This document shows positions 13,408-57,829 of a DNA stretch of 64,000 nt, piece by piece. Position 1 is the first letter of the stretch. Every line of letters starts with the position of its first letter. The DNA lies in NCBI GenBank assembly GCA_021790385.1, contig JAJYDW010000007.1, positions 10,483-74,482 of the forward strand. Reading direction: 5' to 3'. Below the pieces are notes generated by a model. It saw only the letters and a list, made by a program, of their open reading frames with translations. It was not told the DNA's origin and did no database searches. Source of the DNA: Planctomycetota bacterium. GTDB lineage: Bacteria; Planctomycetota; Phycisphaerae; WQYP01. Both the position numbers and the translations under genes were made by a program.

Positions 13408-16329
13408 TTAGCCATGGGGTTCAAAGGGCACCTCAATGGCGAAAATCTGAATTGCGCCGGTGCTGTCTGAATCGTGGCGCAGCATGATGGTATTGTTGCC
13501 CGCGGCCAGCGGCAATTTTAGCGCGATAGTTCGTCCCACGCCCGGCCGAGGTGCGGCGGAAACCTTGAGTTTGGCCGTCTGTCGGCCATTGACATAAACG
13601 TTGAGTGTACCGGCCTGATGGGCATGGACATTGGCAGCGCGAATTTTCACGGCATAACGACCGCGGTGGCTGCGCCGCAGATAAAAGCTGGCACCGGATT
13701 CCGGTATGTTGAGGCGCGAAATATGGGCAACTTGGCCGGCCAAGCCATGTACCAACAAGGCTCGCCGATCTGGGGAGGGACCCATGAGAGACGCCTCGGA
13801 GAGAGAAAGACTTTCAACCTGCGGCAGCGTGGTCTGGTGGCCATGAAGATCGACGGTGATGGCGACACCCGCCGGTAGATGAACGCTGGTAACACCGCCA
13901 AAAACATCCCGCGAGACGCGGACTGTATCCGCGGCCGCAGCGTGGCCGTTTACGTATACATTGGTTGCTGCCTGGCCATGCACGCGCACAACGAAGTGCC
14001 GCACGGTGGAAATATAGGTGCCCTGTGGGGCCGAGATTGCAACATGGGTGTGTTGTCCGTGGCGGTGCGTGCTGATGACCTGCTTATGAAATCGGCCATG
14101 CTGATAATCAAAAGAATCTCCATCATCTTCATAAAAGACGCCTTGGGTAGATTGTCTGGAGGGGAAAATATCAAGATAGGCCACCGTTGGCCGGGCGGTG
14201 TGCAGTGCCGGCACGGGATCAAAGGTGGGAATAATGGCACCATCTTTAATAAAAAGAGGAATATCCATCCAGGAATCGGTGTTGAGGGGATAATCGAGCC
14301 ACTGGCCGCCGCGATAGCGTGTGCCACGGAAGTAATCAATCCAGATATTACCGTCGGGCAGATAGACGCGCCGGGTAGAGCTTTGTTCGAGGGAAGAAAG
14401 CACCGGTGCTGCCAGCAGGTAGTCCCCGAACATCCATTGATTGCTCAAATCAGCCACCTGGGAATCGTGGGGATAATCAAAAAGCAGGGGCCGGACCAGA
14501 CCGATGCCGGTTTGAGTACAGGCGATATGATCAGCGGCGTACGTATATGGGAACAGGGCATAGCGGAGGCGCATGGCCTGCTTGGCGGTTTCGCAGGCCT
14601 GGGTACCATAAACCCATGGCTGGCGGCGCTGGCCGAGCGTGCAATGCACCCGGAAAATGGGACACAGCGCACTGAATTGGAGCCAGCGGGCGTAATTCTG
14701 ATCTGAAGGGTGGCCCTCAAAGCCACCGGAATCCATACCCCAGCGCATCTGTCCGAGATTGATCATGGTCAACATGCGGAGGGTTTGCAGCGCCATGGAG
14801 TCAAATCCGGTGGGGATATCGCCGGACCAGGTGGCGTAGCCGTAGCGCTGGGATCCGAGGTAGAAATTACGGTTGAGGGACCACACTCGCCGGTTAGGCC
14901 GATCGCGCCGCTGCCCCTCATACAAAGCCTGCTGCATGTGGAGAAATTCAAAGTTACCGAGCTGTCCATAATCGGCTTCATCATTCCAGAAGCCGACGAT
15001 ACCGCGCTGCATACAACCGTGGGACCAGGTGGCATTCCAATACCAGCGGCGGCACTTTTCCATGTAGAAATTAACATCAATGGAATAGAGATGAGAAAAA
15101 TAATCTTTGAATGGCTTTTCACCCGGGAACCAGATACCTAGACGGCGTGATTCGGCCCCCTGGGTGGTAAGGGGTTGCAGATGTCCTTTGCGGGTACTGA
15201 GAATAATGCGAGGTTTCATGATACCGGTAATTTTGCAATTTAGATTGGAGGTCCAGGAAAGCAGGCTTTCGGGATTGTCCGGGGGCAGCAGTGCCTGGCT
15301 GTATTTCACGGGGTTCCAGCGGAATTCGCCGTAGTGATTGGCTCCCCAATCCTTCCAGTCAAAATCAAGGGTGAAATTATCAATGGGAATATCTTTGGCC
15401 CGGTAGGTGGTAAGATAATGGCGCAACAGATGCTGATCGGTGCCCCACTGGGAATTGGTAAAACCATAGGCCCAGCGTGGAAACATGGGCATAAAGCCGG
15501 TAATTTCGGCCACGCTGCGGAAGATATCGCGTGGGCTTCCGACCAGAATGAAAAGGGTAAGGGAGTTGGGGCGGTGGTACCGGCAACCATAATCGTCAAG
15601 CGATTCGTTGCCGTAATTGAAGGCGACGCGGTTTGGCCCCATCATGAAAAATCCCCCATCGCTATCCACCAGCAGGCCGTAACCGTCGGTGGTCCAGATA
15701 AAAGGTGCGCCGCCGCCGCCTTCGACACCGGCATCCACCTGGTAGGTGCCGTCGGGCATGCCTGTGCCATTGCGCAGCATGGAACTGCCCATAGAGTATT
15801 TTTTACCGTCCCACCCGGGCATGGCAATGCAACTGATTCCGTAAAACCTGGTTCCCTGATTGCACTGGAAGGCAAAACCGGTCAGACCGGTCTGCCGTGG
15901 ATGCACGTACAAACTTGGCCCTTTGTGCGGGCGCAGTAAATATCTGCCGGTGGCATCGCAGAGGGTGAGGCCCGCAGTGGCCCGTGCAAGGTCCAGGGCC
16001 AAGGCCGCGGTTTTGATCTGCAGCTTTTCGGCCCCGACATGTACCTGCGCCCGGGCATCGCCGGGAAAATGGGCGTGCGGATCCAGCAGCGGTGTGGCGG
16101 GATCGTGGTGTCCGCGGTACAGCAGATCCAGCCGTACGATATGCGGCGAGAGCACGGTGGCCCGGAGAACATTTTTGCCCCAATGAGCCACGAGCACGCG
16201 GTTGTCAACCCAGGCCCGGTCGATGCCGACGGACGGGGCAGCGGCGAGGCAGGTTGAGGCACCGGCCCATACCGATCCGGCAGCGGCGGCGGCAGTGCTT
16301 CTAAGGATAAATTCTCTACGATCAAGCAT
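13408..16329 (-). CDS. Glycoside hydrolase family 31 (alpha-glucosidase or alpha-xylosidase), Tat-signal exported
   Basis: Twin-arginine signal MLDRREFILRSTAAAAAGS. GH31 catalytic region GFWNDEADYG...YATWSGDIPTGFDSMA. About 970 aa with extra C-terminal beta domains. The start is placed at the ATG of MLDRREF. Confidence 0.8.
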   Translation of the reverse strand: MLDRREFILRSTAAAAAGSVWAGASTCLAAAPSVGIDRAWVDNRVLVAHWGKNVLRATVLSPHIVRLDLLYRGHHDPATPLLDPHAHFPGDARAQVHVGAEKLQIKTAALALDLARATAGLTLCDATGRYLLRPHKGPSLYVHPRQTGLTGFAFQCNQGTRFYGISCIAMPGWDGKKYSMGSSMLRNGTGMPDGTYQVDAGVEGGGGAPFIWTTDGYGLLVDSDGGFFMMGPNRVAFNYGNESLDDYGCRYHRPNSLTLFILVGSPRDIFRSVAEITGFMPMFPRWAYGFTNSQWGTDQHLLRHYLTTYRAKDIPIDNFTLDFDWKDWGANHYGEFRWNPVKYSQALLPPDNPESLLSWTSNLNCKITGIMKPRIILSTRKGHLQPLTTQGAESRRLGIWFPGEKPFKDYFSHLYSIDVNFYMEKCRRWYWNATWSHGCMQRGIVGFWNDEADYGQLGNFEFLHMQQALYEGQRRDRPNRRVWSLNRNFYLGSQRYGYATWSGDIPTGFDSMALQTLRMLTMINLGQMRWGMDSGGFEGHPSDQNYARWLQFSALCPIFRVHCTLGQRRQPWVYGTQACETAKQAMRLRYALFPYTYAADHIACTQTGIGLVRPLLFDYPHDSQVADLSNQWMFGDYLLAAPVLSSLEQSSTRRVYLPDGNIWIDYFRGTRYRGGQWLDYPLNTDSWMDIPLFIKDGAIIPTFDPVPALHTARPTVAYLDIFPSRQSTQGVFYEDDGDSFDYQHGRFHKQVISTHRHGQHTHVAISAPQGTYISTVRHFVVRVHGQAATNVYVNGHAAAADTVRVSRDVFGGVTSVHLPAGVAITVDLHGHQTTLPQVESLSLSEASLMGPSPDRRALLVHGLAGQVAHISRLNIPESGASFYLRRSHRGRYAVKIRAANVHAHQAGTLNVYVNGRQTAKLKVSAAPRPGVGRTIALKLPLAAGNNTIMLRHDSDSTGAIQIFAIEVPFEPHG

Positions 16330-16361
16330 GGTGGGGTCTCCTGCAATATAAGCACACATTT

Positions 16362-19118
16362 CTAGTGAGAAAAACCGGCTTGGAATTGACCACGGCGATA
16401 GCGGGCCAGGAGCATGGCCTGCCATGGCTTTAAGGTCAGCCGCAGTGATTTGGCTTGGGTATTAATCAATAAACCGTGACGTATACGTACCAATATGGGC
16501 CGGGCGTCGGAATCTTTCACCGGAGGCAGCAAGAGTTTGCAATACCGCGGGGAAAGGTAGTTGAGCAGGTGGTGGCCGCGATCGAAATGAAAGACTGGGA
16601 TTTCAATGTGTACCGTTGCGGCGCTGCGATTGACTACAAGATAAACATGGTTATGGCCGAGGGAGCGGTAACAGGCAAACACGCGCCGATGGCCTACAAC
16701 GCGGAGCCGGCCCCAGGAACCGATCTGCAAAGCGGGCAACTGCCGTCGGGCCGCAATGGCCCGGCGGTAAAAATGCAGCAGAGGCGTGTTGACGGTTAAG
16801 GCCGGATTGTCATAAGGCTGGAGATCTTTCCAGATCATGGGCTGGCGGTTGGCTGGATCACTGGCACCCCACATTCCCACCTCATCGCCGTACCAGATCA
16901 TGGGCGCACCGGCAAAGGCCATCTGAAAGGCGACCACTTCTTTGAGCCGCGTGTATGCCTCCGCGGTTGGTTTAGCAGTACTGTAATGAGGGTTGCTGTC
17001 CTGCAGGCGGTCTGCACCGTTAAAGGGCAAATTGGGGTTCATGAAGCGAGAAATAAAGCGATCGGTATCCTGGCTGTTGAGCAAATTCTGATTGACCAGA
17101 TCCACTTGATAAGGGTAATAACTGAGAATTTGGGACAGGTGCGAGGCAAACTGTCGACTGGAGAGGCCCCGCCCGCCGCTGCTTATGGTGTCTGCAAAGT
17201 ATTTGGTGGCAGCCTGGGCAAATGGGTAATTCATGACGCCATCAAATTGATTGCCGCGGTTGAGCCACGCCTGGGCCGGGGTCCAAATTTCTCCGATGAT
17301 CAGGGCGTGTGGATTAATGGATTTGACGAGTCGACGCCAGGCAATCCAGAAGCGGTGCGGCACATCCGGGGCGGTATCGAGCCGAAAGCCATCCACACCA
17401 TTTTTGACGTTGCCGTTGGGAGCCAACCAGCGTCGGGTGGCGGCAAAAAGGTAGTTGCGGACGCCACGCTGGAGGCCATAGCGTATGCTGCGGGCAAAAA
17501 CGGGCATGGCACCGTTGGGCTTATCCCAAGCCTGGTATTGCACAGGCGGCCCCCAACTGGTGATGTCAAACCATTTGGCGTAGGGTGATTTTCGACCGTA
17601 CTTAAGGACATTTTGAAAGGGAGGAAAATCGACGCCGCAATGGCCAAACGGCACGTCCATAATTACTTTGAAGCCCTGACGGTGCGCAGCGGCCACCATA
17701 GCCAGAAAAACTTTATCTGAAGCAGACCACTGCCAGGTTGAGGGATTACGGGTATGCTCGCCTTTGATTTTAGCCAGCGATCCCTTGACGCCGAAGCCAT
17801 CATCAATATGGATGAAACTGGACGGATCATATTTATGCACACTGGGGGCTTGAAAAACCGGGGTAAGATAAAGGGCATTAACGCCCAGGTGCCGCAAGTA
17901 AGGCAGTTCCTGCTGGATGCCCTGAATATCGCCGCCGTAGAAGCGATTGTAGACATAACTGTAGAAGTTGCCTTTTTCACCGGCCGGGCGGTATGGCCTG
18001 TTCCAATTCCACCGCCAGGGGATGTGATGGCCGGGATCGTTGGCCCGACTGCCATTGCGAAAACGATCGGGAAAAATTTCGTACCAGACGGCTTTTTTGG
18101 CCCAGTGCGGCGTAACCACGCGGGCCTGCATTGGAGAATCATAAGCGTGAGCACGGGCCGCGTGCGCGGAAGCATAGAGATAACCACGGGCTAAAAAGAC
18201 CCGGTCGGTGCCGTGAACAAGCTGAAAATAATAGCTTACCGTTGGGCCGTGCACCGGAATTACGTTGGCCCAGGTGGTGGCACCGGCATGGTTTTCCACC
18301 ACGTGCAATCCTATGGACCCAGGATGCGGTCCCGGCAGAATCACACGCACATGGCTTAAGCCGCCAGTTTGGGCCCGCAGTACCAGACGCACATCGTGGT
18401 GGGCAATTACATCAAATTCACGGGTATTGGCGGTACGGAAGGAAATGGCTTGAGGATTGATACGATTGGCCAACGGCGGCGAAAGTTTGAGCCAAGGGGA
18501 AACCACGTCTATGCACGAATTAAAACCACCCATGCCGTTGGACACACGTTTGGCTGCATGCGGATCGGTAATCCACTGATGGTGGTTGAGGACAAATTTG
18601 TACTGGTGAACTCCGGGGGAGAGCCGAAGGGAGGCAATCCAACGATTTGCGTGGCGCAACATAGGATTGGCGCTAACGGACCAGGAATTAAAATCCCCGG
18701 CGACGCAGAGAGCTTTTATAGTGCCGGCAGACGCCAGCGAGGCAGGTTGGTAGGAGAATGTAACACGCACCAGACGGGGTGGAGCACTGATGGCGGCAAT
18801 CGGCGGGCTTGGTACCGGGCGCTTGGCGCAGCTCGCCAGCGCCAGCCCGAACAGCAGGAGTGAAGCAACAAGTAGCCCCCAGAAAAAAGATAGCCGCCAG
18901 GATGCCCGCCTGAACAACGGTTGCGGGCGGCCAAGGCTAACCAACAAGCCCCATTTTGCCCGCTGTTGCACTCTATCTGCCTCCACAAGTGAGATGGATT
19001 GTGGCCTTGGCGATGACTTGTTATCCATTCGGAAAAACCCTTGTAATGATTGGCACATGGCCGCTGAGTTTGCGCAAAAGTGTCCGATGATCAGGCACAT
19101 CTGACCACAGCCAATCAA
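16362..19118 (-). CDS. GH13 alpha-amylase-family enzyme with an N-terminal CBM48/E-set glycogen-binding module (pullulanase, neopullulanase or glycogen-debranching type)
   Basis: CBM48-like CVAGDFNSWSV...HQYKFVLNHHQWITDP. GH13 regions YLTPVFQAPSVHKYD, GFRLDTAPDVPHRFW, IIGEIW and FAGAPMIWYGDEVGMW. Signal peptide with a possible LALASC lipobox. The true start is probably at an internal Met. Confidence 0.8.
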   Translation of the reverse strand: MIGCGQMCLIIGHFCANSAAMCQSLQGFFRMDNKSSPRPQSISLVEADRVQQRAKWGLLVSLGRPQPLFRRASWRLSFFWGLLVASLLLFGLALASCAKRPVPSPPIAAISAPPRLVRVTFSYQPASLASAGTIKALCVAGDFNSWSVSANPMLRHANRWIASLRLSPGVHQYKFVLNHHQWITDPHAAKRVSNGMGGFNSCIDVVSPWLKLSPPLANRINPQAISFRTANTREFDVIAHHDVRLVLRAQTGGLSHVRVILPGPHPGSIGLHVVENHAGATTWANVIPVHGPTVSYYFQLVHGTDRVFLARGYLYASAHAARAHAYDSPMQARVVTPHWAKKAVWYEIFPDRFRNGSRANDPGHHIPWRWNWNRPYRPAGEKGNFYSYVYNRFYGGDIQGIQQELPYLRHLGVNALYLTPVFQAPSVHKYDPSSFIHIDDGFGVKGSLAKIKGEHTRNPSTWQWSASDKVFLAMVAAAHRQGFKVIMDVPFGHCGVDFPPFQNVLKYGRKSPYAKWFDITSWGPPVQYQAWDKPNGAMPVFARSIRYGLQRGVRNYLFAATRRWLAPNGNVKNGVDGFRLDTAPDVPHRFWIAWRRLVKSINPHALIIGEIWTPAQAWLNRGNQFDGVMNYPFAQAATKYFADTISSGGRGLSSRQFASHLSQILSYYPYQVDLVNQNLLNSQDTDRFISRFMNPNLPFNGADRLQDSNPHYSTAKPTAEAYTRLKEVVAFQMAFAGAPMIWYGDEVGMWGASDPANRQPMIWKDLQPYDNPALTVNTPLLHFYRRAIAARRQLPALQIGSWGRLRVVGHRRVFACYRSLGHNHVYLVVNRSAATVHIEIPVFHFDRGHHLLNYLSPRYCKLLLPPVKDSDARPILVRIRHGLLINTQAKSLRLTLKPWQAMLLARYRRGQFQAGFSH

Positions 19119-19184: not shown

Positions 19185-20393
19185 CTAGCTGCGCAGGCTG
19201 CGCATCATGCCGGTGGATTCCCGCAATACCAGGTGCGTGGGCAATACCTCAGCTACATGTTCCACCTTGCCGCGAATGCGTTCCACCAATTTTTCGCAGG
19301 CTAAAACCCCCAGTTCATACAGGGGCAGATGCACGGTGGTTAGACTGGGGTTGGCGTAGGCCAGATGCTGAATATCATCAAACCCGACGACTGAAACATC
19401 ATCCGGTACCCGGTGTCCATGGGTGGTGAGGTAGCGGATGGCACCCAAGGCCATTTTGTCATTGCCGCACAAGAGTGCGGAAATTTGGGGATCACGGGAG
19501 AGCAGAATGCGAGTCGCTTCCGCCCCACCCTCATCGGTAAAACAACCATCCACCAGCCAGTGTTCCGATGGAGTTATTCCCGCGGCCACCAGGCTGGAAG
19601 TATAGGTTTCCACAACATCACGGGCGGTGGGGCTTTCCGGAGCGGCGTAGACCATGCCGATGCTGCGATGTCCAAGCTGTAAAAGACAGTTCATAGCCTG
19701 CTGGGCACCGAGGCGATAATCGCAATGGACATAATCCAGCAGGTTATCGCCAAAGCGGTTGTCTACCAGAATCATGGGATAACGCCGGGCGGCGAAGTCT
19801 GATAAAAAGCTGTGCTTTTCATTAAAGCCCAGGCAAAGCACACCATCCACGAACCGGCGTTCATATAATTCGAGATGTTTTCCCTCTTTGACAAATTGAG
19901 GTTTGGCCTGCTCGATGAGCAATTTATGGCCGAGTTTGCCGGCGCGATCGGCGATTCCACTGAGTATTTCTCCAAAGTAGGCATCGGCAAAGGCGTGCCG
20001 AAGCGGGGGCAGCATAACGGCAACCACCTGGGTGTACCTCCCGGAAAGACTCTGGGCGAGCCGATTGGGACGGTAGCCCATTTTGTCGATCATCTTCTGG
20101 ACTTTAATATGCGTAGAGCGGCTGATGCGCGGGCTGGCATTGAGCACCATGGAGACTGTGGCCACGGAAACTCCCGCTTGCCGGGCTACCTCGCGGATGT
20201 TGACTTTTTCCGGGACTTTTTCTTCCACAGCGGCATTATTAAACCGCACGGTTATTTCTTTGGAAGCCTCGCGGCTGGGCGCAAAAGCATCCGCAGATTT
20301 GCTTTCCGGAGAAGAATTAAGCGGTGGCGTGGGCACGACGTATAATCTCCAAAATGGGTCCAATTCCCAACCGTTGTTAAAACAGTTTACCAT
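19185..20393 (-). CDS. LacI-family transcriptional regulator
   Basis: HTH VNIREVARQAGVSVATVSMVLN followed by a periplasmic-binding-protein-like sugar-binding core. The 90-aa N-terminal extension in the ORF track is probably non-coding; a GTG internal start is likely. Confidence 0.85.
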   Translation of the reverse strand: MVNCFNNGWELDPFWRLYVVPTPPLNSSPESKSADAFAPSREASKEITVRFNNAAVEEKVPEKVNIREVARQAGVSVATVSMVLNASPRISRSTHIKVQKMIDKMGYRPNRLAQSLSGRYTQVVAVMLPPLRHAFADAYFGEILSGIADRAGKLGHKLLIEQAKPQFVKEGKHLELYERRFVDGVLCLGFNEKHSFLSDFAARRYPMILVDNRFGDNLLDYVHCDYRLGAQQAMNCLLQLGHRSIGMVYAAPESPTARDVVETYTSSLVAAGITPSEHWLVDGCFTDEGGAEATRILLSRDPQISALLCGNDKMALGAIRYLTTHGHRVPDDVSVVGFDDIQHLAYANPSLTTVHLPLYELGVLACEKLVERIRGKVEHVAEVLPTHLVLRESTGMMRSLRS

Positions 20394-20619
20394 TCTTGTT
20401 TAACAGTGTCAAGCGTGAACAAGATGGATGGCCGTATGGGGGAAATAGCGGTCAGCGTTTTAGCGGTCAGCGATCAGCAATCAGCTTTCAGCGGGCGGTG
20501 GCGGTTGGTATTTGCGACGGCGATGGAGACATCGCCGGAAAATGCGATCTGTGGCGTTTTAGTTGATCGGCGGCTAAATTTATGATTGAGCGTGCATCAT
20601 TAATGTTCGCCACGGCGAT

Positions 20620-20700
20620 GCGGGCAGGAGGCCCGCGATCCCAGGGATATCGTGGCGGGCAAGAATGTTGCTTCACGGGCACAGAGAATGTCTGTGCTAC
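20620..20700 (+). repeat. Intergenic repeat family, copy B (ends CACGGGCACAGAGAATGTCTGTGCTAC). Two tandem TAGCGGTCAGCG motifs lie about 150 nt upstream (20446-20472).
   Basis: Aligned by eye to 13255-13390; see findings. Confidence 0.5.
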
Positions 20701-20972
20701 GTTTAATTGCCCTGGCGGAATGGCCGGGCTGGGGGAGGTGGCCGTGGCGATTGCTGCGAACTTTTAAAATACCAAGATAGCTGGAAAAATTCTTAAAGAT
20801 TTTATTTGACTTGTATATGGGCATTGGATTAAAATGATTAAAAGACTATAGCAGCGGCAAAATATGGGCTTTTGCTGGTGTTTTTCGGCTGATGGCCGCG
20901 AGTACGCGACTTAAAATTCCACGGATGGTACCTCCCATTGGGAGTAATCGGGCAGAAAAAATATGGCGGGGC

Positions 20973-21001
20973 TTGACAAGGGCAGTTTAATCGGTTAAAC
21001 T
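20973..21001 (+). promoter_or_regulatory. Promoter-like TTGACA-N17-TAAACT, copy 1, containing the degenerate palindrome GTTTAATCGGTTAAAC
   Basis: Seen in sequence; about 320 bp upstream of the PEP-CTERM gene at 21318, in a locally AT-rich region. Confidence 0.4.
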
Positions 21002-21220
21002 GATAACCAGAGATAGAATGGCTATGTAATATGGACTTTGATTATGGCGCGCACTGGTCTGTTCAATTGCGATGGCAAATACACCCTTGCGGGCGGGGCC
21101 TATAACTGTATCGGGTTGAAAACCCTGAATGTCGGCGCGTGCCGACGGGTTAGAGCGGCAACGGATGTAATAAACAACTAAGGAATGGAGGCGCAATATG
21201 AGCGACAAAACAGGTAGCCG

Positions 21221-21249
21221 TTGACAAACGTGGTTTAACCGGTTAAACT
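21221..21249 (+). promoter_or_regulatory. Promoter-like TTGACA-N17-TAAACT, copy 2, with the perfect 16-bp palindrome GTTTAACCGGTTAAAC (21233-21248) in the spacer
   Basis: Seen in sequence; about 70 bp upstream of the PEP-CTERM gene start at 21318. Confidence 0.55.
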
Positions 21250-21317
21250 TGCATTCAATGAGTATCAGAGGCTTTTCAATAGTTTGAGTTTTGTGTACCT
21301 TTTTAGGAGGTTCTATC

Positions 21318-22154
21318 ATGGTTCTTCAAGTTCTTCCTCATCGTCGATCTTTGGCAATCCTTGTGGGATTGAACGCGGGAGTGGTGGCAGCAGGCTGTTT
21401 TGCCCAGTCCACCAGCGCCGCGATGATCGCATCAGACAATGCGGCTAATTATACCGGGGCTATTTCTACCGGCAGCACCGGCGGCACAGGGTTTGAAGCC
21501 TGGACGGTTACCACGAGCGGCAGCGGCTCTATGGGCAACTACCTGGATGCCAGCAGCAAAGGCATTGCCACCAACACCAAGAGCTGGGGGACGTACGCCA
21601 ACACCGGAACCAATCCACGCATCGACCTGACGCGGCCATTTGAGACCAGCGCCGGCGGCTCTGGCGGCACACTCCGGGCCGGCCAAACCTTCAGCGTGGC
21701 CATGGAATCAGATGGTGTCGGCAACAGCGGAGCCTTGGGTTTCTCCCTCCAGAGCAGCTCGCCGATCAACCAATTCACCTTCGAATTCGATGGAGCCGCT
21801 GGCTACAACAATATGAGCATTATCGACGGTAGCAACAGCGGCAAGGAATATCAATCACCCGTGGCCCTCCCCTTCACCAGCTATATTGGCAAGGGCATGA
21901 CTGTGAATTTTACGCTGGTGACTTCCTCCACGTACGATCTTTCCGTGACGCCGGTGGGCGGCAGCCCCGTAACCGTGATTACCAACGGGACGCTGCCGGG
22001 CGGGGCAATCAACCAGGCGGATTTGTTTGACCAGAACACCAACGGCAACGGCTACTTCAACAGTATTTCCATTGTCCCCGAGCCGGCCTCGCTGGGGCTG
22101 ATGGCGATCGGTGGATTGGCCTTGCTGCTGGTAGGACGCCGGAAGACGGCTTAA
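21318..22154 (+). CDS. PEP-CTERM sorting-domain secreted protein (exosortase substrate), paralog 1
   Basis: RBS AGGAGG then ATG. Signal peptide. C-terminal VPEPASLGLMAIGGLALLLVGRRKTA (PEP motif, TM helix, basic tail). N-terminal region shares the SDNAAN..G...TGGTGF motif with the next gene. Confidence 0.75.
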   Translation: MVLQVLPHRRSLAILVGLNAGVVAAGCFAQSTSAAMIASDNAANYTGAISTGSTGGTGFEAWTVTTSGSGSMGNYLDASSKGIATNTKSWGTYANTGTNPRIDLTRPFETSAGGSGGTLRAGQTFSVAMESDGVGNSGALGFSLQSSSPINQFTFEFDGAAGYNNMSIIDGSNSGKEYQSPVALPFTSYIGKGMTVNFTLVTSSTYDLSVTPVGGSPVTVITNGTLPGGAINQADLFDQNTNGNGYFNSISIVPEPASLGLMAIGGLALLLVGRRKTA

Positions 22155-22175
22155 GTGTTAATCAGGTAAGAGCAA

Positions 22176-22214
22176 AGCGTTGCCGGGAGCACCGACGTGG
22201 ACCCCGGCAACGCT
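22176..22214 (+). terminator. Intergenic stem-loop: perfect 12-bp stem AGCGTTGCCGGG / CCCGGCAACGCT, 15-nt loop, no clear U-tract
   Basis: Seen in sequence between the two PEP-CTERM paralogs. May be a partial terminator or attenuator, or an mRNA stability element. Confidence 0.45.
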
Positions 22215-22239
22215 TAAATGGAGTTTTGGAGATAAATTT

Positions 22240-23229
22240 ATGAGTCTGATATTCAGAACCATTTTTGATTCACGTACGCCGCGTGCCCGCCGGGTAGCGA
22301 GTGCGGCTGTCGCGGGCATGATCGGCTGGGCCATGGGTCACAGCGCGGCGGTACGCGCTGTGATCCTGGCCTCTGATAATGCCGCCAACACCGCGTATTC
22401 CGGCGGCACATGGTCTGGAACCAGTAACGGCGGCACCGGCTTTAGCCAATGGTTTCAGGGGCCAACGGGTTCTGGCGTGAACCAGGCCGCCACATGGGGA
22501 TTCACCACCCAGACAGCTTCCACCGTGTTTGGGACTTATGTTACCCCGAATATAGATACCAATGGGGTATCCTGGAGTATGGGGGCCTATAACGGCACCA
22601 GCAGCGATCCGGCTGCTCCGTATGCCTATCGCGGCTTAAATACGCCGTTGCAAATCGGCCAAACCCTGCAGTTGAGCATGGCCACGGGTTACATGAGCAA
22701 CCCTGGACAGGAAGGCTTTCAGATTCAAAACTATAACGCTACCACCGGCTACGGCACGCCGCTGTTTCAGATTGCCGCGGCAGGCTCGGGCAGTTATTAC
22801 GCCATCAGTTACGGTGGTTATACCTCCCCCACCACCGGCTTTGCGTACTCGGCGTTGACCGGCATTGCTTCTGCCCACACCGGCGTTACCACGCCCAACA
22901 ATGGCAACGGCATAACCGTAGCCTTTACACTGGAATCGCCAACGTCATTTAATTTGACGATTACTCCGCTGGCGGATCCTTCGGCAGCGGAGACGTTTAC
23001 CAATCTGACCCTGACGGATTTGCCGGTAAACCAGTTGTTCTTATACAACGACAACTTGGGACTGACCTCCCAGTACGCCTATTTTAATAACCTGGAAGTT
23101 ACCGCCACGCCGGAACCGGCACCGGCGGCGATGCTTCTAGGCGGAGTGGCGATGCTGGCCTTGATTCGGCGACGTAAAATTGGAGCCAAGGCGGCACTGT
23201 TTGGCCGCGGCAAAATTCAGGGCACCTAA
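22240..23229 (+). CDS. PEP-CTERM sorting-domain secreted protein, paralog 2
   Basis: C-terminal TPEPAPAAMLLGGVAMLALIRRRK. N-terminal motif ILASDNAAN..YSGG..GTGF shared with paralog 1. Confidence 0.75.
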   Translation: MSLIFRTIFDSRTPRARRVASAAVAGMIGWAMGHSAAVRAVILASDNAANTAYSGGTWSGTSNGGTGFSQWFQGPTGSGVNQAATWGFTTQTASTVFGTYVTPNIDTNGVSWSMGAYNGTSSDPAAPYAYRGLNTPLQIGQTLQLSMATGYMSNPGQEGFQIQNYNATTGYGTPLFQIAAAGSGSYYAISYGGYTSPTTGFAYSALTGIASAHTGVTTPNNGNGITVAFTLESPTSFNLTITPLADPSAAETFTNLTLTDLPVNQLFLYNDNLGLTSQYAYFNNLEVTATPEPAPAAMLLGGVAMLALIRRRKIGAKAALFGRGKIQGT

Positions 23230-23292
23230 GCACATGGCCAGGGCCTCGGCGGAATTACATGCCCGAGACCTGGGATAAAAAAGGATAACACC

Positions 23293-26200
23293 ATGGAACC
23301 GACGAGAAACAATTTGGCAAGTTCCACCCGGCAGCGCCGCAACATGGTTCTGCGGGCGTGTCGTGTAGTGGCCTGCGGGATAGCGGGTGCCGCGGTCATC
23401 AGCCTGTGCCGCCCCGCCGCCGCGCAGGTTTTCGGAACGCCGTATTCACCGCCGACCATTCTCGATGCGTTCGGTATGCCATGGACCAATCTTACCGCCC
23501 GCATGCCCGATATTTTTGGAGCCGGTTACGGGGCCATTCTCACCCCGCCGCCCACCCGTGCCGACAGCGGTAACGGTTCGGTGGGCTATGACATTTATAA
23601 TCGCTTCGACCTGGGCAGTCCCGGCGACCCCACGGCCTACGGCACGCTTTCCGGATACGAACAGCTTATTGCCGCCACACACCAAATGGGTGGATACATT
23701 TACGTTGATTATTCCATGGGACACAATGGCTTTTCCAATTCCGCCTCGGTGGATGGCAATGGCAATTCGTTTGTCAATGCCGGAGGCTACCCGGGCTTTG
23801 TTACCTCTTATCCCGGAAATTCCTATCTGAACCCGAGTGATCCGGCCAATATTGACGGCGATTTTAACGGGGCGTATGCCCAAAATGTGGAAGAAGCCCG
23901 GCTGGCCGGCCTTATTAACGTGAATTTTAACACCGATTATCAATATATCCGCAGCCCTACCACGGCGGGAGATCCGGCCAACATCCCCGGCGGAACCACC
24001 CCGGCCTTTGGCCGCCTGGCCAATGTGCCCATGCCGGTGAATCAGCAATTTTATCCCAACCCCAACAGCCAACCGATTTTTATTTACAACCCGCAAACCG
24101 GCCAGGGCAATATTCAGGTCAATTCCTTTACGCCTTCCAATCCGATGGCCGGTTCGCCCACCGCGGAAAATGTTACCGGCTACGAAATGCGCAATATTCA
24201 GTGGTTTGTGCAAACGCTGGGGGTTGATGGCTTCCGGCTTGATGCTACCAAAAATATGGAATGGCAGACGGCCCTGCCTTATTTCAATCAGGCGGTTTAC
24301 CGGGCCTCGCCGCGGACCTACCTCAATGGCGTGCAGGAAACCATTTTTTCGTTCCAGGAATATTATGACGGCAATCCCGCCAACGTTTTTCCGGTGATCC
24401 AGAAAAGTCCCATGAACCCAGACGGAGCTCCCGCCGGCAACATTGGCACCGTGCAGCCCAACCTGGACGCTCTGGACTTTCCTTTGTTTTTCTCCCTACA
24501 ACAAAACCTCACCGGCAACGGGTTTACCAATAGTTGGTACAACGTCAGCGACGGGCTGGACCCCAACCATACAGGTAACACCGGCGTGCGATTCGTGCAA
24601 AGCCAGGACAACGGAGCCCCTTATCTGGCCAATGTGGCCGCCGCTTATACCCTGATGATGCCCGGCCAGTGCATTGTGTACTACAACGGCAATTTGACCC
24701 CTTACGACAACGGCACGCAGACATTTCCGCAAAATGGCCGGGGCGATGCCCTGGGCGGCGTGTACGGCAACACCATGGCCAATAATTCTTTAAGCACGTA
24801 CAACGCCGGCTCGAACACCATGACTGTAACCCACAGCAATGAAATCAGCGGTCTGGTGGATATCCGCAATCGTTATTCCAGCGGCGGCTACATTCAGCGC
24901 TATATTACCCAGAACAATCTGGCGTTTGAACGCAGCGATTCCGCCCTGGTGCTGCTGAACAATCAGACCGGAGGCATTTCGGGCACGGCCAGCATTCAGA
25001 CGAATTTCAACTCCTACAACGTACCCTACCTGGTGGAACTCACGGGTAACGCCGCCGCCCAGGGCCTGCCGCAGGTACTGCAGGTTTATTCCAACGGCGT
25101 GGTCAACGTCACCTTCCCCAACAACGGCTACAACAACAGCACCGGCGGCGGTGATCTGATCTACGGCCCGGCGACACCCGAGGGCACGCTGACGATTACT
25201 AATGTCGCCGGTCAAATCGCGGGTACCACTCCCACCACCAGCACGCCCAATCTGCCGCAGGCCAATGGCGCGGATGTTATCAGCAACGTGGCGGTGGTGA
25301 AAGGATCGCAATTTCAGATTCAACTGCAAACCCAAAAAGTCTATCTGCTGGGCCAGCAGAATTTATTTGACTACAACGCCGGCGGCGACAGCGCCATTTT
25401 CAAAATAGATGGTGGCACACTGGTCAATGGCCAGCAGTTTGTCAGCACTGAGCCAAACACCATCGCCTACGGTTTCCTCCCCTTTCAAACCGGCAGTCCG
25501 TTGGCTCCGCAAAATGGAACCGCGCCAGGTACCGGCCTTTATACCGAAACCATCAATACCAGTGATCTCTCGCAAGGCTATCATTACCTTACCGTGATCG
25601 CTTTCCGCACACGCCATGCGCCTGGCGCTCCACCCGTTTACACCGACTGGACGCAAACCATCTATGTGGATACCGCCCCGTCGGTATCGGCCATTATGAG
25701 TTTTAACCCCACCGTTCCCGGGGTCAACCAGAACCGCACCTTGACGGTGGAAAACGTGGACAGTCTGGCCAACAACATCAATGTTTTGTTTGACCTGCCG
25801 GCAGCGGATACGGCCAGTCAAATACTGGCCCTGCTCAACAGTTCCACCCAGGCCACGCAAACCGACACCAATTTATGGACGATTAATGCTACCGGGCTTA
25901 CCAGCGGCAACCATGTAGCCACCGTCGTAACCTTTAAGCCGGATGGTACGTACAACATCCAACGTTTCGCGGGATTGTACACCTCCACCATTTATGGTGC
26001 AGGGCTGGGGGATTTGAATTTTGACGGCCAATACAACCTGGCCGATGTTCAGACCATGGCCCAGTTGCTGGCCAGCAACAACACCGAATTCAATCCAGCG
26101 GCAGATTTTCTGGGTACCGGTGTTATTACACCGCAGGATTTAATTCCTTTTGGCCAAAAGCTTCAGGCGGAAGGAGCCAATAGTGCCACCATGGCGGCAT

Positions 26201-26385
26201 ACCAGTCCCTTTACGACCAGTATTTTGGCAGCAGCATTTCTTCGACTATCGCCAAAACGTTTGCGGCAGATAACCTGCTTTCGAATCAGACCACGCCAAC
26301 GCCGGAGCCATCGGCGGCGTGGCTGATGCTGGGTGGATTACCGCTGCTTTTGAAGCGTCGCGGTGGAGCGATGCGGATTAGTTAA
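23293..26385 (+). CDS. Large (about 1000 aa) secreted GH13-like alpha-amylase-family protein with a dockerin-like or EF-hand-like Ca-binding motif and a C-terminal PEP-CTERM anchor
   Basis: GH13 N-terminal signature AGYGAILTPP...GYDIYNRFDLGSPGDPTAYGT...YIYVDYSMGHNG and GVDGFRLDATKNMEW (region II-like). GDLNFDGQYNLADVQ resembles a dockerin or Ca-binding loop. C-terminal PTPEPSAAWLMLGGLPLLLKRRGG. Confidence 0.65.
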   Translation: MEPTRNNLASSTRQRRNMVLRACRVVACGIAGAAVISLCRPAAAQVFGTPYSPPTILDAFGMPWTNLTARMPDIFGAGYGAILTPPPTRADSGNGSVGYDIYNRFDLGSPGDPTAYGTLSGYEQLIAATHQMGGYIYVDYSMGHNGFSNSASVDGNGNSFVNAGGYPGFVTSYPGNSYLNPSDPANIDGDFNGAYAQNVEEARLAGLINVNFNTDYQYIRSPTTAGDPANIPGGTTPAFGRLANVPMPVNQQFYPNPNSQPIFIYNPQTGQGNIQVNSFTPSNPMAGSPTAENVTGYEMRNIQWFVQTLGVDGFRLDATKNMEWQTALPYFNQAVYRASPRTYLNGVQETIFSFQEYYDGNPANVFPVIQKSPMNPDGAPAGNIGTVQPNLDALDFPLFFSLQQNLTGNGFTNSWYNVSDGLDPNHTGNTGVRFVQSQDNGAPYLANVAAAYTLMMPGQCIVYYNGNLTPYDNGTQTFPQNGRGDALGGVYGNTMANNSLSTYNAGSNTMTVTHSNEISGLVDIRNRYSSGGYIQRYITQNNLAFERSDSALVLLNNQTGGISGTASIQTNFNSYNVPYLVELTGNAAAQGLPQVLQVYSNGVVNVTFPNNGYNNSTGGGDLIYGPATPEGTLTITNVAGQIAGTTPTTSTPNLPQANGADVISNVAVVKGSQFQIQLQTQKVYLLGQQNLFDYNAGGDSAIFKIDGGTLVNGQQFVSTEPNTIAYGFLPFQTGSPLAPQNGTAPGTGLYTETINTSDLSQGYHYLTVIAFRTRHAPGAPPVYTDWTQTIYVDTAPSVSAIMSFNPTVPGVNQNRTLTVENVDSLANNINVLFDLPAADTASQILALLNSSTQATQTDTNLWTINATGLTSGNHVATVVTFKPDGTYNIQRFAGLYTSTIYGAGLGDLNFDGQYNLADVQTMAQLLASNNTEFNPAADFLGTGVITPQDLIPFGQKLQAEGANSATMAAYQSLYDQYFGSSISSTIAKTFAADNLLSNQTTPTPEPSAAWLMLGGLPLLLKRRGGAMRIS

Positions 26386-26484
26386 AAGAGAGGGCGAGAA
26401 TTGTTGGCGACAGGGTGAATGGAAGCCCAAGCCACCCCAAAAGGGCAAGATGGTGTCAAAATGAACACGAAGGCATAGTCGTAC

Positions 26485-26512
26485 TTGACAAACCAGTTTA
26501 ACCGGTTAAACT
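26485..26512 (+). promoter_or_regulatory. Promoter-like TTGACA-N17-TAAACT, copy 3, with the perfect palindrome GTTTAACCGGTTAAAC (26496-26511)
   Basis: Seen in sequence; about 50 bp upstream of the DUF1559 gene (RBS AAGGAG, ATG at 26559). Confidence 0.55.
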
Positions 26513-26558
26513 ATGTTTGTCGCTATGTTTGGGTCTGCTCTTACAAGGAGTGTTGATC

Positions 26559-27662
26559 ATGATTAGCAGGCAATTATCTGGGCGTCGGTGGCCATCCTTA
26601 AAACAAGAATCCGCTGTGGTTACTAAAAAGGGGTTCACTCTCATTGAGTTATTGGTGGTGATTTCCATCATCGCCATTCTCATTGCCCTGCTGCTGCCGG
26701 CCCTGGCCGCAGCCAGACAGGAAGCGGATTCCGTGCTGTGCCTTTCCAATGTGCGGCAAATGGCCCTGGGAGCCATTGAATTCACCCAAGACCATCAGGG
26801 GCTTTTTCAGCCGGACACCGATACGAATGTGGTTACAGCGTATGTGGATCCCAGCCATCAGCTTTTTGCCTACCGGTCAACTTCGACCGGCACGTATCTG
26901 TTGGATTGGGCCAGTGCGCTGATTCCATATATGGGCGGCACCAACAGCCAGAACTTTGTGGGTATGGCCACCAGCGGCACTCCGGGCAGCTACTACGCCC
27001 CCGGCACTTACCCCAAAGTGTTTTTGTGTCCGAGCGACCCAACATTAAATGATACGTGGCCAGGTTATGCTCTTATTAATAATGTCACCAATCCGGCCGG
27101 CGATACCGGAGATGGAAGCTTCGCCTATTTCCCGGTATCCTACGGTGTCAATGCTGATGTTTGCTCGATTGTTGACCCCGTCAATGGCAACGACTTCAAC
27201 CAAGGTTCCACCATGGACGTGGCGAATGGCCCGGCCGGAGTCGGTGGTGGCCAGCCACTGGGTTGCAGGCTCTCGCGGGTTGTGTCGCCCAGTACCACGT
27301 TGCTTTTTGCCGACTGCGGCACCCGGCCCACGCAACCGGAAGCCGTGCCCGGCGCACCGCTGAACTATAACGATGGCTTGTATTACACCACTAACTACGA
27401 CGTGTACGCCGGTATTCCGGCCAGCTACCCCGCAAATACCATTAACACGCTGGAGGGAGTTGCGCTAACCTCCTGGCTGCGTGATCGGATTCCCATTGCC
27501 GGCAGTTTGATGCCCAGTAACATCAACGCCAGTCCGCAGCAGCCGCAAAACATCATGGATCGCCACGGCGATCACATCAACGTATCGTTTTGTGATGGCC
27601 ATGCGGAAGCAGTTAACGTTTCGCAGTTTGCTAACGTCAACGTATCACCCTATGGCCGGTAA
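26559..27662 (+). CDS. Prepilin-type N-terminal cleavage/methylation domain protein of the DUF1559 (H-X9-DG) family, typical of Planctomycetes
   Basis: [27 protein letters not shown] pseudopilin N-terminus. C-terminal [13 protein letters not shown] (H-X9-DG). Confidence 0.8.
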
Positions 27663-27823
27663 TGGCGTGAGTGGTCAGTCAGCAACAGTTTGATTACCAT
27701 GTAGAGAGCTTAACACCACCCTCGTGGTCGATGGCGTTCTTGCCAACGGGCATTCAAGCCTGAAAAGATGGCCAAGGGGTGGGCGATGATCTACATTCGG
27801 CGGCACCAAAAGAGGAACCCAGT

Positions 27824-29635
27824 ATGACGCATGTATTGTCGAGCGCTCGCCTTGCAACTGCAATACCCCATCTGGCCGGCACCCTGGCAGGCGGGCCGGT
27901 GTTAAAGGCGCATCCGATTGATTATCTGATTATGGGCGTTTACTTTGTGTTTGTCATTGCCATCGGAGTCATTACCGGGCGGGGCCATCAGACCAGCGAA
28001 GACTTTTTTCTTTCCGGCAGGCGCATTCCGGCATGGATTACGGGGCTGGCGTTTATTTCCGCCAACCTGGGGGCTTTGGAAGTAATGGGCATGTCCCAGC
28101 AGGGCTATGAATACGGCATGATGACCGCCAACTATTATTGGATTGGGGCTATTCCAGCCATGGTGTTCATGGGCATCGCCATGATGCCCTTCTTTTACGG
28201 CAGCAAAGTACGTAGTGTGCCGGAATTTCTGAAAAAGCGATACAATGAAGGTGCCCGTTTTATCAACGCCATCACATTCACGATTTTCACCCCGGCCATT
28301 TCGGGCATCAGCATGTACGCTTTGGCAGTGGTGATGCAGGACTTTTTGGGATGGCATTTCGGGCCGAGTGTATGGGTGTCGGCAGCGGTGGTGCTGGTGT
28401 ATACATTTCTGGGCGGTCTAACGGCCAGCATTTACAATGAAGTGCTGCAGTTTTTCCTGATTGTGCTGGGCATTGCTCCACTGAGCATCATCGCCCTGAT
28501 TGCGAACCATGGATGGTCGCACTTCAAAAAGTGGATTGCCACGCATCAGTTACCATTTTTAACCCCGGATCAGCTTACCGCTGCCGCATCGCAGCCTGCT
28601 AAGGCCGCACATCAACTGGCCGCAGGTCAATGGCTGCATACCTTTCACAACACGCTTACGCAAAGCAATCCGATGCACATCACCTGGCCGGGCATTGTAC
28701 TGGGGCTGGGTTTTGTGCTGTCGTTTTCGTACTGGTGTACCAACTTCCTGGTGGTGCAGCGGGCGCTGGCGGCGAAAGACATGAATGATGCGCAGCGGAC
28801 ACCATTGCTGGCGGCGTTCCCGAAAATGATTTTCCCTTTTATTGTCATTTTGCCGGGCGTGCTGGCTCTGCCACTGCTGCCGCACTTATTTCCCGGCAAT
28901 ACGATGGTGGATGGGCATCTGATTCCGGCGACGCAGTCATTTAATAATGTGATGCCGCTGATGCTGGCAAAGTATTATCCGGCGGGTCTGCTGGGACTGG
29001 GGCTTACGGCGCTGATGGCGTCGTTTATGTCTGGCATGGCGGGCAATGTTACGGCTTTCAATACGGTTGTCACATACGACCTCTATGCGGTGTTCATCCG
29101 GCCGCAGGCTCCGGACCGGCATTATCTGTGGGTGGGCAGAATTTTGACGGTTGTCGGTGTGGTGATCAGCGTAGCATTTGCGTACGTGGTACGCGGTCAG
29201 TCCGGCATTATGGGGTACACGCAGACGATTTTCGGTGTGGTCAATGCGCCACTGATTGCGGTTTTTCTGCTGGGAATGTTTGCGAGTTTCACCACACCGG
29301 CCGGCGGATTGTGGGGCTTGCTGGTGGGCACGGGAACATCGGTAACGCTATGGATATTCCGATCCCATCCCGGCCTGCCGCTGTGGCATCATTATAACAA
29401 CAACACCACCGGTGCCTTTTGGGGTGCCATCTGGGCATTTTGTGCCGGTGCGGGTGCCACCATCATCGTAAGTTTGTTTACCAAGAAAAAAACGGACAAA
29501 GAAATGGTAGGGCTGGTTTATCAGCTTACCCCCAAGCCGGAACAGGACCACCAGCTACCATGGTGGAAAAAGCCGGTGGTGCTGGGCGTATTGGCACTGA
29601 TTTTAACACTGCTGATCAATCTTTGGTTCTGGTAA
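27824..29635 (+). CDS. Sodium:solute symporter (SSS family; SGLT-like sugar/solute transporter)
   Basis: About 600 aa with about 14 TM segments. The SSS signature region is GRRIPAWITGLAFISANLGALEVMGMSQQGYEYG. Confidence 0.85.
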   Translation: MTHVLSSARLATAIPHLAGTLAGGPVLKAHPIDYLIMGVYFVFVIAIGVITGRGHQTSEDFFLSGRRIPAWITGLAFISANLGALEVMGMSQQGYEYGMMTANYYWIGAIPAMVFMGIAMMPFFYGSKVRSVPEFLKKRYNEGARFINAITFTIFTPAISGISMYALAVVMQDFLGWHFGPSVWVSAAVVLVYTFLGGLTASIYNEVLQFFLIVLGIAPLSIIALIANHGWSHFKKWIATHQLPFLTPDQLTAAASQPAKAAHQLAAGQWLHTFHNTLTQSNPMHITWPGIVLGLGFVLSFSYWCTNFLVVQRALAAKDMNDAQRTPLLAAFPKMIFPFIVILPGVLALPLLPHLFPGNTMVDGHLIPATQSFNNVMPLMLAKYYPAGLLGLGLTALMASFMSGMAGNVTAFNTVVTYDLYAVFIRPQAPDRHYLWVGRILTVVGVVISVAFAYVVRGQSGIMGYTQTIFGVVNAPLIAVFLLGMFASFTTPAGGLWGLLVGTGTSVTLWIFRSHPGLPLWHHYNNNTTGAFWGAIWAFCAGAGATIIVSLFTKKKTDKEMVGLVYQLTPKPEQDHQLPWWKKPVVLGVLALILTLLINLWFW

Positions 29636-45528: not shown

Positions 45529-45619
45529 TTGACTTGCTGTAATTCCTTTGTTATTGTGGCTATTGGAAGTGCATGTTTCCACCGCGTGTTCTCGGAGATG
45601 AGCATAAATCTCCGCCGCG
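45529..45619 (+). promoter_or_regulatory. Promoter-like TTGACT-N17-TATTGT (45529-45557) followed by the conserved leader block GTGTTCTCGGAGAT-gagcataa-ATCTCCGCCGCG (hairpin 45593-45614)
   Basis: Seen in sequence. Homologous to 47918-48005 with compensatory stem changes. About 270 bp upstream of the PEP-CTERM gene at 45889. Confidence 0.45.
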
Positions 45620-45888
45620 TGGAATGAAGGCTTCCCAAAACGGGGCATGCTCATGCCGACCGTTGAAGATTTATCGCGATGGATCGTTGTATTGTTCCCC
45701 TCCGGCCGTGAGGCCGGGGAAGGATGCAGGGTAAGCCTTGCGCCTACTGCCGCAACGATTTCCAGTCAGACCGACATCAAATCGAGCAAAGAGGTGCTTA
45801 TGTGACTGTGCGGATAATTTAGCTCAATGGAAAGGTCCGTTTTCCACGTTTTTACATTTCTCCCGTGTGGAGAGAATTGGAGTTTATC

Positions 45889-46797: not shown

Positions 46798-46874
46798 GGT
46801 CGCCGCAGTAACTGGCAGCGGGGCACCCCTGCCGCTGCACCTGACGATTTCTCCGGCAGCAGAAAGGAGTAGTC

Positions 46875-47864: not shown

Positions 47865-47917
47865 AAGCTTCCAGACGGACGGAGCCAGTGGGTGCAAAGT
47901 GAAAAATAAAAACTGGT

Positions 47918-48005
47918 TTGCTGCTGCAATAGTGCTCTGGTAGTATCGTTTAGCAAATAGGCTTCCCGTGTGTTCTCGGAAATTTTTGCTCATTTCCGCC
48001 GCGGC
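47918..48005 (+). promoter_or_regulatory. Promoter-like TTGCTG-N17-TAGTAT (47918-47946) followed by the leader block GTGTTCTCGGAAAT-ttttgctc-ATTTCCGCCGCGG (hairpin 47977-47998)
   Basis: Seen in sequence. Same flanks as 45586-45619, with a G-C to A-T covarying stem pair and an inverted loop. About 100 bp upstream of the giant Tat/Sec-exported gene at 48104. Confidence 0.45.
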
Positions 48006-48103
48006 TGGCAACTTGGCCTTTAATCAAAACTGAAAATATTGTGGCATCACCATCTGGCCCATGGCCCGGCTTTGGCCGGCTCTTTCGTGCAGAGGTATGA
48101 ATT

Positions 48104-57816: not shown

Positions 57817-57829
57817 ATAAAGGGAACCG

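Follow-up and report, generated by a model that had tools for sequence, protein, structure and literature searches.

The locus considered here raises the question of how one bacterium might switch a set of secreted and surface-anchored proteins on and off together. It lies in a 64,000-nt stretch of DNA from a Planctomycetota bacterium of the class Phycisphaerae (lineage WQYP01; GenBank assembly GCA_021790385.1, contig JAJYDW010000007.1, positions 10,483 to 74,482), referred to as the window, in which one palindrome, GTTTAACCGGTTAAAC, recurs inside three promoter-like modules ahead of genes for PEP-CTERM, amylase-like and pilin-like proteins. Judged from sequence comparison, this palindrome is very probably the operator of a LacI-family repressor encoded divergently from those genes. 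The locus is an alpha-glucan (starch/maltodextrin) utilization locus, and the regulator, the sites and the genes that they front are taken in turn below.

Anatomy of the promoter/palindrome modules

All three modules lie on the plus strand and pair a perfect -35 hexamer, TTGACA, with the -10-like hexamer TAAACT. The hexamers are found at 20973-20978 and 20996-21001 in module 1 (P1/O1, 20973..21001) and at 21221-21226 and 21244-21249 in module 2 (P2/O2, 21221..21249), each with a spacer of 17 nt; in module 3 (P3/O3, 26485..26512) they are found at 26485-26490 and 26507-26512 with a spacer of 16 nt, so that the spacer of exactly 17 nt given to every copy by the initial annotation applies to the first two. 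The resulting sigma-70-type form, TTGACA-N16/17-TAAACT, agrees with the consensus at 10 of 12 positions. In each copy the palindrome starts 5-6 nt after TTGACA, and TAAACT overlaps its right part. O2 (21233-21248) and O3 (26496-26511) are perfect copies of GTTTAACCGGTTAAAC, the latter within a perfect 18-bp palindrome over 26495-26512; O1, GTTTAATCGGTTAAAC (20985-21000), carries one mismatch, as does the 20-bp palindrome of 20983-21002 in which it sits. A direct check of the sequence agrees with the placing of the three copies, and with the count of two perfect palindromes and one with a single mismatch, given in the initial annotation. The 16-, 18- and 20-bp forms, the last being CAGTTTAACCGGTTAAACTG, are all centered on CG and share the core AACCGGTT. 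The -10 ends 69 nt before the ATG at 21318 in module 2 and 47 nt before the ATG at 26559 in module 3; both start codons are preceded by a ribosome-binding site (RBS), AGGAGG 7 nt before the former and AAGGAG 8 nt before the latter. The earlier description of copies 2 and 3 as lying 50-70 bp upstream of genes with strong RBSs is borne out in substance, while the name DUF1559 given to the second gene was slightly overstated.

Chance is a poor account of these copies. At up to 3 mismatches GTTTAACCGGTTAAAC is observed three times in the 64 kb against 0.15 expected, and TTGACA-N15-19-TAAACT four times against 0.01 expected. Palindromes of at least 16 bp number three against 1.06 expected, so that as a class they are not enriched, and the idea that long palindromes are generally in excess was dropped; what stands out is that one and the same palindrome recurs. 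An origin as a mobile element or repeat was likewise dismissed, the likeness among the three copies being limited to 28-29 nt. The window has five perfect TTGACA-N16-18-TAnnnT sites; TAAACT is the -10 of four of them, each within the starch locus, which leaves TAAACT unsupported as a general -10 of this organism.

Conservation of the site among relatives

The loci of relatives were fetched through homologues of the regulator, and L-numbers (for example, L073) denote individual loci. The names attached to these homologues also put the source organism in Phycisphaerae, phylum Planctomycetota. Orthologous loci keep the regulator gene followed by a GH13 gene, together with a divergent cluster that encodes proteins of ~300, ~330 and ~1000 amino acids (aa) and a pilin-like protein. 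Where the regulators are 95, 77 and 66% identical, the first gene of this cluster is preceded by the perfect 16-mer, which has TTGACA 5-6 nt ahead of it.

A scan for the bare palindrome through one genome each for 185,579 species (596 Gb of reference genomes) returned 69 loci with 75 sites, 17 of which lie in 13 Planctomycetota/Phycisphaerae genomes and 58 in other phyla. TTGACA is found at N5-7 for 15 of the 17 Planctomycetota sites and for none of the 58 elsewhere; none of the 17 falls in an open frame of at least 150 codons, whereas 29 of the 58 do. The initial annotation had called for a genome-wide search of this kind, and in this lineage the sites prove not to be scattered at random inside genes. 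In 13 Planctomycetota species representatives the 16-mer and TTGACA again front the cluster described above, which lies divergent from the orthologous regulator, and an orthologue of the regulator adjoins the site wherever the flanks are long enough to show both. In all, about 14 Phycisphaerae genomes have the block before this cluster, although their flanking DNA has diverged. In the four closest reference genomes, which are metagenome bins and may be incomplete, the perfect site is found only in the starch locus; this distribution of sites points to a regulon that is local and confined to one locus. The O2 module is present in all orthologous loci, a two-site layout ~5.3 kb apart, as for O2 and O3, is also seen in L032, L055, L070 and L073, and L064 has an internal site of the O3 type. 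By this comparison P2/O2 is the ancestral module, to which P3/O3 and P1/O1 have been added in this clade.

Across 27 non-redundant modules the 16-mer and the T that follows it form a near-invariant 17-nt block, and the spacer and downstream DNA carry almost no information. The distance from the -35 to the palindrome is 5, 6 or 7 nt in these modules while the promoter spacer is always 16-18 nt, as is expected if TTGACA is an element for the polymerase and the palindrome a separate protein site. A metagenomic set of another 80 regulator loci has the AACCGGTT core at 22 places in the 56.8 kb upstream of regulators at least 57% identical; the remainder of those loci, 145.5 kb, has four, and none lies upstream of regulators less than 57% identical. 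The operator arms vary in the distant clade (GTYRAACCGGTTYRAC), where the site could not be tied to a promoter; an operator overlapping the -35 (...AACCGGTTTGACA) was considered for that clade and dropped, as no convincing -10 follows and the flank is a variant half-site, GTYRAACCGGTTYRAC. An operator position that is variable in the distant clade is fixed as A/T here, presumably because it is also the second base of the -10.

Two other occurrences were observed in passing. The amylase, PEP-CTERM and pilin-like cluster is missing from L003/L004 (8600-10000; regulator 79% identical), where an unrelated gene is nearby, as is a Y1 transposase-like gene in L003, and the site has decayed to ATTTAACCGGTTAACC with no clear -35; this looks as if the regulated operon had been lost and its operator left as a relic. 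In Flavobacterium (L048 4289-4332, L075 3528-3571) the same 16-mer centers a much longer palindrome (ttaaccgttaatttGTTTAACCGGTTAAACaaattaacggttaa) without TTGACA, which is probably an unrelated element.

The adjacent regulator and its match to the palindrome

The regulator is a 383-aa LacI-family protein (19185..20336, minus strand) with a helix-turn-helix (HTH) and a type-I periplasmic-binding-protein core (PF00356 2.7e-15, PF13377 9.8e-31, PF00532 7.3e-23); it aligns over its full length to the structures of CcpA, PurR and LacI, best of all to CcpA (E = 2e-46). Its start is assigned to the GTG at 20336 from a GGAGA RBS, a 383-aa gene call and the third-codon-position pattern of substitution in relatives; the boundary of 20393 reported earlier holds for the open frame. 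A C-terminal tetramerization tail was not found, the protein ending 8 residues past the region aligned to LacI residues 4-329. Across 17 homologues, the most distant at 61% identity, there is next to no change in the reading head (...GVSVATVSMVLN.NPRISR...GYRPNRLAQSLS); the hinge (...YRPNRLAQSLS...), which holds Ala-51 and a Leu-54 that aligns with the hinge Leu of CcpA, is likewise invariant. Co-variation of reading head and operator was unusable as evidence, the head being invariant across the family.

LacI-family operators are even palindromes of 16-22 bp with a central CG, usually located 30-140 bp before the start codon (PMC4052901). O1-O3 have this form; the centers of O2 and O3 lie within the range, at -77 and -55 relative to the start codon, and that of O1 lies outside it, at about -325. 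The hinge residues Ala-51 and Leu-54 go with a central CG, into which the Leu inserts, and a published recognition code relates Val/Ala at amino-acid positions 15 and 16 (AA-15/16) to TA at nucleotide positions 5 and 4 (NT-5/NT-4) over 67 sites, with AA and GA as degeneracies (PMC2978694, code in its Table S1). The regulator has Val-15/Ala-16, and NT-5/NT-4 of the operator half-site, G-T-T-T-A-A-C-C, are T and A, as predicted; the operator variants of the distant clade carry GA or AA at these positions, which are the recorded degeneracies. Arg at AA-20 pairs with G at NT-6 (PMC2978694), a rule that covers Arg only; the Met at AA-20 here (TVSM, invariant) and the T at NT-6 are compatible with it. 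The comparative genomics and the recognition-code test together support the proposal that the adjacent LacI-family protein binds as a dimer and that a palindrome over the spacer and -10 occupies the position of a repressor site. A TetR-type protein, named alongside LacI as a candidate in the initial annotation, is not needed.

Several points weigh against this assignment. The recognition code was derived and validated for the TVSR subgroup while the regulator is TVSM, and TA is also favored by several other residue classes, which makes the test moderately discriminating; the match is therefore supportive and not decisive. A paralogous regulator with the same reading head, encoded elsewhere in the genome, could conceivably be the binder instead. 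Several of the supporting genomes are close relatives (regulators 95-98% identical) and so are not independent. The GH13 and GH31 genes that follow the regulator gene have no operator of their own, and part of the pathway would therefore escape control. Autoregulation is usual among local LacI-family regulators, at about three in four (PMC4052901), yet the promoter of this regulator lacks a full site: none with up to 4 mismatches and a central CG is present at 20384-20412.

The promoter in question (20384..20412, minus strand), which the initial annotation missed, is the fourth match to the promoter form in the window; it reads TTGACA-N17-TAAACT with a TG and shares both hexamers with modules 1-3. 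It is a sharp island of conservation that holds only half-site-like repeats, GTTAAAC/GTAAACTG; a full autoregulatory site was searched for there and rejected, and canonical autoregulation is thus not supported.

Further features were noted around the regulator. Its promoter sequence, TTGACACTGTTAAACAAGAATGGTAAACTGTTTTAACAA (20384-20412, to ~20350, minus strand), is almost identical in relatives whose neighboring DNA cannot be aligned, and includes direct repeats, GTTAAAC/GTAAAC, similar to one operator half-site; in L003, L076, L082, L083 and L093 the related repeats GTTAAACTGATTAAACAGTTAAAC and GTTAAACTGTTTAAAC stand 157-175 bp ahead of the aligned part of the regulator. Between the regulator and the operon, 20440-20500 is an imperfect tandem run rich in CAGC (gcggtcagcgttttagcggtcagcgatcagcaatcagctttcagcggg), which is shorter in L073 and absent from L002. 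The protein also has an extension of ~47 aa N-terminal to the HTH (20196-20336, minus strand), which is unusual for the LacI family; it is clearly translated, since its differences from relatives fall at third codon positions, and a semi-conserved I-x-[VI]-x-F-[DN] is seen in homologues at least 71% identical.

Copy 1 and the leader between P1 and P2

Copy 1 was first described as lying about 320 bp upstream of the PEP-CTERM gene in an AT-rich stretch with no convincing open reading frame (ORF). The distance holds, and so does the judgment on ORFs, as the frame of the candidate is not conserved; the AT-richness is modest, with 42-47% GC around copy 1 and a window mean of 56%. Module 1 is kept with its own perfect -35 in L073, L002 and L055 (regulators 95-98% identical) and is absent in relatives at 66-77% regulator identity. 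In the most economical reading of this pattern, copy 1 would be a recently added upstream promoter with a leader of ~310 nt, and O2 would lie in the path of transcripts begun at P1.

Under the alternative, copy 1 would have no part in transcribing the operon; it would be an auxiliary operator looping with O2, or it would drive a separate small RNA or leader peptide. This is improbable, although it deserves some weight. Its distance from the start codon, beyond the usual range, is in its favor; so is the leader between P1 and P2 (21002..21220, plus strand), ~80% conserved in close relatives, with a predicted long-range helix and a mini-ORF of the form GGAGG-ATG. However, the perfect -35 of copy 1 is conserved at the correct spacing along with the palindrome, and no terminator-like site is found between P1 and P2. 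The 45/47-aa ORF after copy 1 (21038/21044-21181, a gene call in one assembly) was rejected, being broken by 1- and 2-nt indels in relatives, and the three distinct leader sequences compared offer one compensatory pair in support of the predicted helix. A loop joining O1 to O2 is unlikely and was set aside, because the regulator has no tetramerization tail and the O1-O2 distance, which is 239, 248 or 255-256 bp in relatives, does not keep helical phase. An Rfam scan of 20000-27000 at E<=1 gave no matches. A regulatory leader or short RNA driven by copy 1 is possible; an added promoter of the operon is the reading retained here.

The mini-ORF (21198-21224, in the region 21187-21224) consists of GGAGG-N6-ATG and 8 codons, MSDKTGSR, with a TGA stop inside the -35 of P2; its RBS and ATG are kept in L073, L002 and L055, its peptide length is not (8, 4 and 4 codons). 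Upstream of copy 1 lies a further conserved block (20780-20960) with the sharpest AT trough, at 27% GC. It contains a promoter-like TTGACT-18-TAAAAT (20806-20835), a terminator-like hairpin (20855-20877) and a small hairpin, CTCCC-ATT-GGGAG (20932-20944), which is CGCCC-TTA-GGGCG in L002/L055, a compensatory change; the block may be the site of another small transcript or a protein-binding region.

Other readings of the palindrome

An operator for some other protein, whether a paralogous LacI-type, a TetR-type or another dimer encoded elsewhere, is unlikely. LacI-family paralogues are numerous in the lineage (6538 proteins at E<=0.001), and L003 has another sugar-sensor regulator beside a pilin-like gene; against this stand the co-occurrence of the site with the orthologous regulator, the agreement of site shape, central CG and NT-5/NT-4 bases with the reading head of the adjacent protein, and the confinement of the perfect site to the starch locus in the four closest reference genomes.

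It is very unlikely that the conserved block is instead a promoter element, such as an extended -10/spacer for the polymerase or an alternative sigma factor, with incidental symmetry and no repressor. The right half does supply the -10 hexamer, the promoter of the regulator has the same TTGACA and TAAACT without a palindrome, and TAAACT is carried by four of the five perfect promoter-form sites; however, the left half, which has no role for the polymerase, varies as little as the right, orthologous regulators of the distant clade still have the AACCGGTT core upstream without an overlapping -10, and the palindrome is constant while its distance from the -35 varies.

That the regulator works at these sites as an activator or anti-activator and not as a simple repressor is very unlikely: CcpA and CytR are LacI-family proteins able to act positively or through partner proteins, but here a dimer bound over the spacer and -10 would shut the polymerase out, and no activator is needed, as the -35 is a perfect consensus. 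Most LacI-family regulators, furthermore, bind DNA without ligand (PMC4052901).

Proposed mechanism

With the palindrome taken as the operator of the adjacent repressor, the following mechanism is proposed from the arrangement of sites and genes. The right half-site would supply the -10 hexamer (GG-T-TAAACT) and the left half would fill the spacer; the bound repressor dimer is predicted to cover about -24 to -7 and to keep RNA polymerase off the promoter, because the palindrome spans the spacer and the -10. The near-consensus -35 would fit strong promoters that are normally kept silent. The repressor would be released on binding a sugar, which the gene content suggests is probably of the maltose or maltodextrin kind and derived from the breakdown of alpha-glucans. 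This release is expected to turn on the secreted or surface-anchored amylase-like enzyme, two PEP-CTERM proteins, the pilin-like DUF1559-type protein and probably a sodium:solute symporter.

Genes of the locus

Directly downstream of the regulator gene, on the minus strand, profile matches identify a GH13 gene (16362-19118) whose product has CBM48 and alpha-amylase domains and is maltodextrinase-like, and a gene for a GH31 alpha-glucosidase-like protein (13408-16425); both are probably co-transcribed with the regulator gene, and the order of regulator then GH13 is kept down to ~42% regulator identity. The initial annotation had envisaged a dedicated regulon for cell-surface or secreted proteins. 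The putatively controlled genes are indeed of the secreted, PEP-CTERM and pilin-like kinds; because the GH13 and GH31 genes follow the regulator gene, however, the set is more precisely one local alpha-glucan utilization locus and not a generic collection of surface proteins.

The operon behind P1/P2 (21318..26385, plus strand) begins with the gene for a 278-aa PEP-CTERM protein (21318-22154; PF07589 at 22.1 bits, cut-off 20.7), followed by that for its paralogue (22180/22240-23229; 31% identical), a 349-aa PEP-CTERM protein with a TIGR02595 score of 16.7 against a cut-off of 16. The third gene (23293-26385) encodes an alpha-amylase-like protein of 1030 aa with a signal peptide, an amylase-like N-terminal region (E = 1.5e-9 to solved amylases; 2.9e-20 to NF006970, well below the curated cut-off of that model) and a C-terminus, ...PTPEPSAAWLMLGGLPLLLKRRGG, recognized by eye as a PEP-CTERM tail. 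The first gene after P3 (26559-27662, plus strand) encodes a prepilin-type (N_methyl), DUF1559-like protein with the leader KKG|FTLIELLVV; it scores 30.3 bits for N_methyl (cut-off 21.2) and 22.2 bits for PF07596 (DUF1559), just under the threshold of 23.3. The gene for the sodium:solute symporter follows (27779-29635, plus strand); the 117-nt gap before it has no promoter- or terminator-like site on the plus strand, and the symporter gene is probably co-transcribed with the pilin-like gene from P3.

A second locus of the same layout was observed in the window (45865-61851), with a PEP-CTERM gene (45865-46797) and a prepilin-type gene (46875-47864) followed by glycoside hydrolases, namely two GH123-like giants, a GH31/melibiase-like enzyme, a GH95 and a GH29 alpha-L-fucosidase; a promoter-like TTGACT-17-TATTGT (45529-45557) lies ~330 nt upstream without such a palindrome. 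In this organism, glycan-utilization loci seem repeatedly to begin with pilin-like and PEP-CTERM genes. In L003 (854-3319) a hybrid regulator (Peripla_BP_3 with an AraC-type HTH) is encoded divergently from another prepilin-type gene, which is a further pairing of a sugar sensor with a pilin-like gene in the lineage.

Comparison with known systems

A LacI-type repressor acting on a promoter is a textbook mechanism, and the closest parallels are found among well-studied members of the family. PtxS of Pseudomonas, a LacI-family repressor, binds TGAAACCGGTTTCA overlapping the start site and is released by the sugar acid 2-ketogluconate (PMC11678583). It resembles the system proposed here in its palindrome with an identical central AACCGGTT, in the overlap of the site with the core promoter and start, in hindering the polymerase and in its sugar-derived effector; the PtxS site, however, is of 14 bp with arms TGA.. 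in place of the GTTT.. seen here, the pathway is different, the phyla are unrelated, and the site of the starch locus itself supplies the -10 hexamer.

LacI with lacO and GalR/GalS of E. coli share with the starch locus an HTH with a hinge helix, an even palindrome with central CG and occupancy of the promoter. The Val-Ala reading-head class, to which GalR belongs, prefers TA at NT-5/NT-4, the dinucleotide found here. In contrast to the LacI/GalR class, AA-20 is Met and not Arg here and NT-6 is T and not G; lacO spans +1 to +21, whereas the palindrome lies over the -10 and spacer; and the starch-locus regulator is without the C-terminal tetramerization segment, so looping by a LacI-style tetramer is not expected. 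MalR-type repressors of Gram-positive bacteria control maltose and starch genes, and the MalR/Reg1-type and CcpA/cre systems are alike in the sugar-responsive, LacI-family control of amylase and alpha-glucoside genes; their operator sequences are different, and the genes of the starch locus include those for PEP-CTERM and pilin-like proteins, which those systems are not known to have. CcpA is moreover global and needs HPr-Ser-P, whereas the regulon here would be a single locus. The Sus system and other polysaccharide utilization loci of Bacteroidetes provide a functional analogy only, that of a sugar-switched locus with surface-anchored degrading and accessory proteins and an uptake component; unlike them, the present locus is without SusC/SusD homologues or a SusR-type regulator, it has PEP-CTERM anchoring and a prepilin-type protein, and the roles of its proteins are predicted.

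Implications for Phycisphaerae

The palindrome is a clean, deeply conserved regulatory element in a little-studied lineage, the Phycisphaerae; the literature searched yielded nothing on LacI-family operators, this motif or this regulator in that group, and a large survey of LacI-family regulons is without mention of Planctomycetes (PMC4052901). The locus may also be, tentatively, a planctomycete counterpart of starch-utilization systems, in which the DUF1559 pilin-like and PEP-CTERM-anchored proteins would be substrate-specific parts for glycan capture or uptake, co-induced with the surface amylase. This suggestion is put forward because the pilin-like gene is kept beside the amylase gene in at least 14 loci, because it has gained an operator-bearing promoter of its own in this clade, and because a second glycoside-hydrolase locus is similarly headed. 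No paralogue family of a model planctomycete is larger than DUF1559, whose function is unknown (PMC10632474); if the suggestion is true, these proteins would gain a testable role. The compact set of promoter, operator and repressor could become a sugar-inducible genetic tool, one for Planctomycetota if the starch-utilization counterpart is real, and the tie between DUF1559-type pilin-like and PEP-CTERM proteins and the use of alpha-glucans is a concrete, testable hypothesis.

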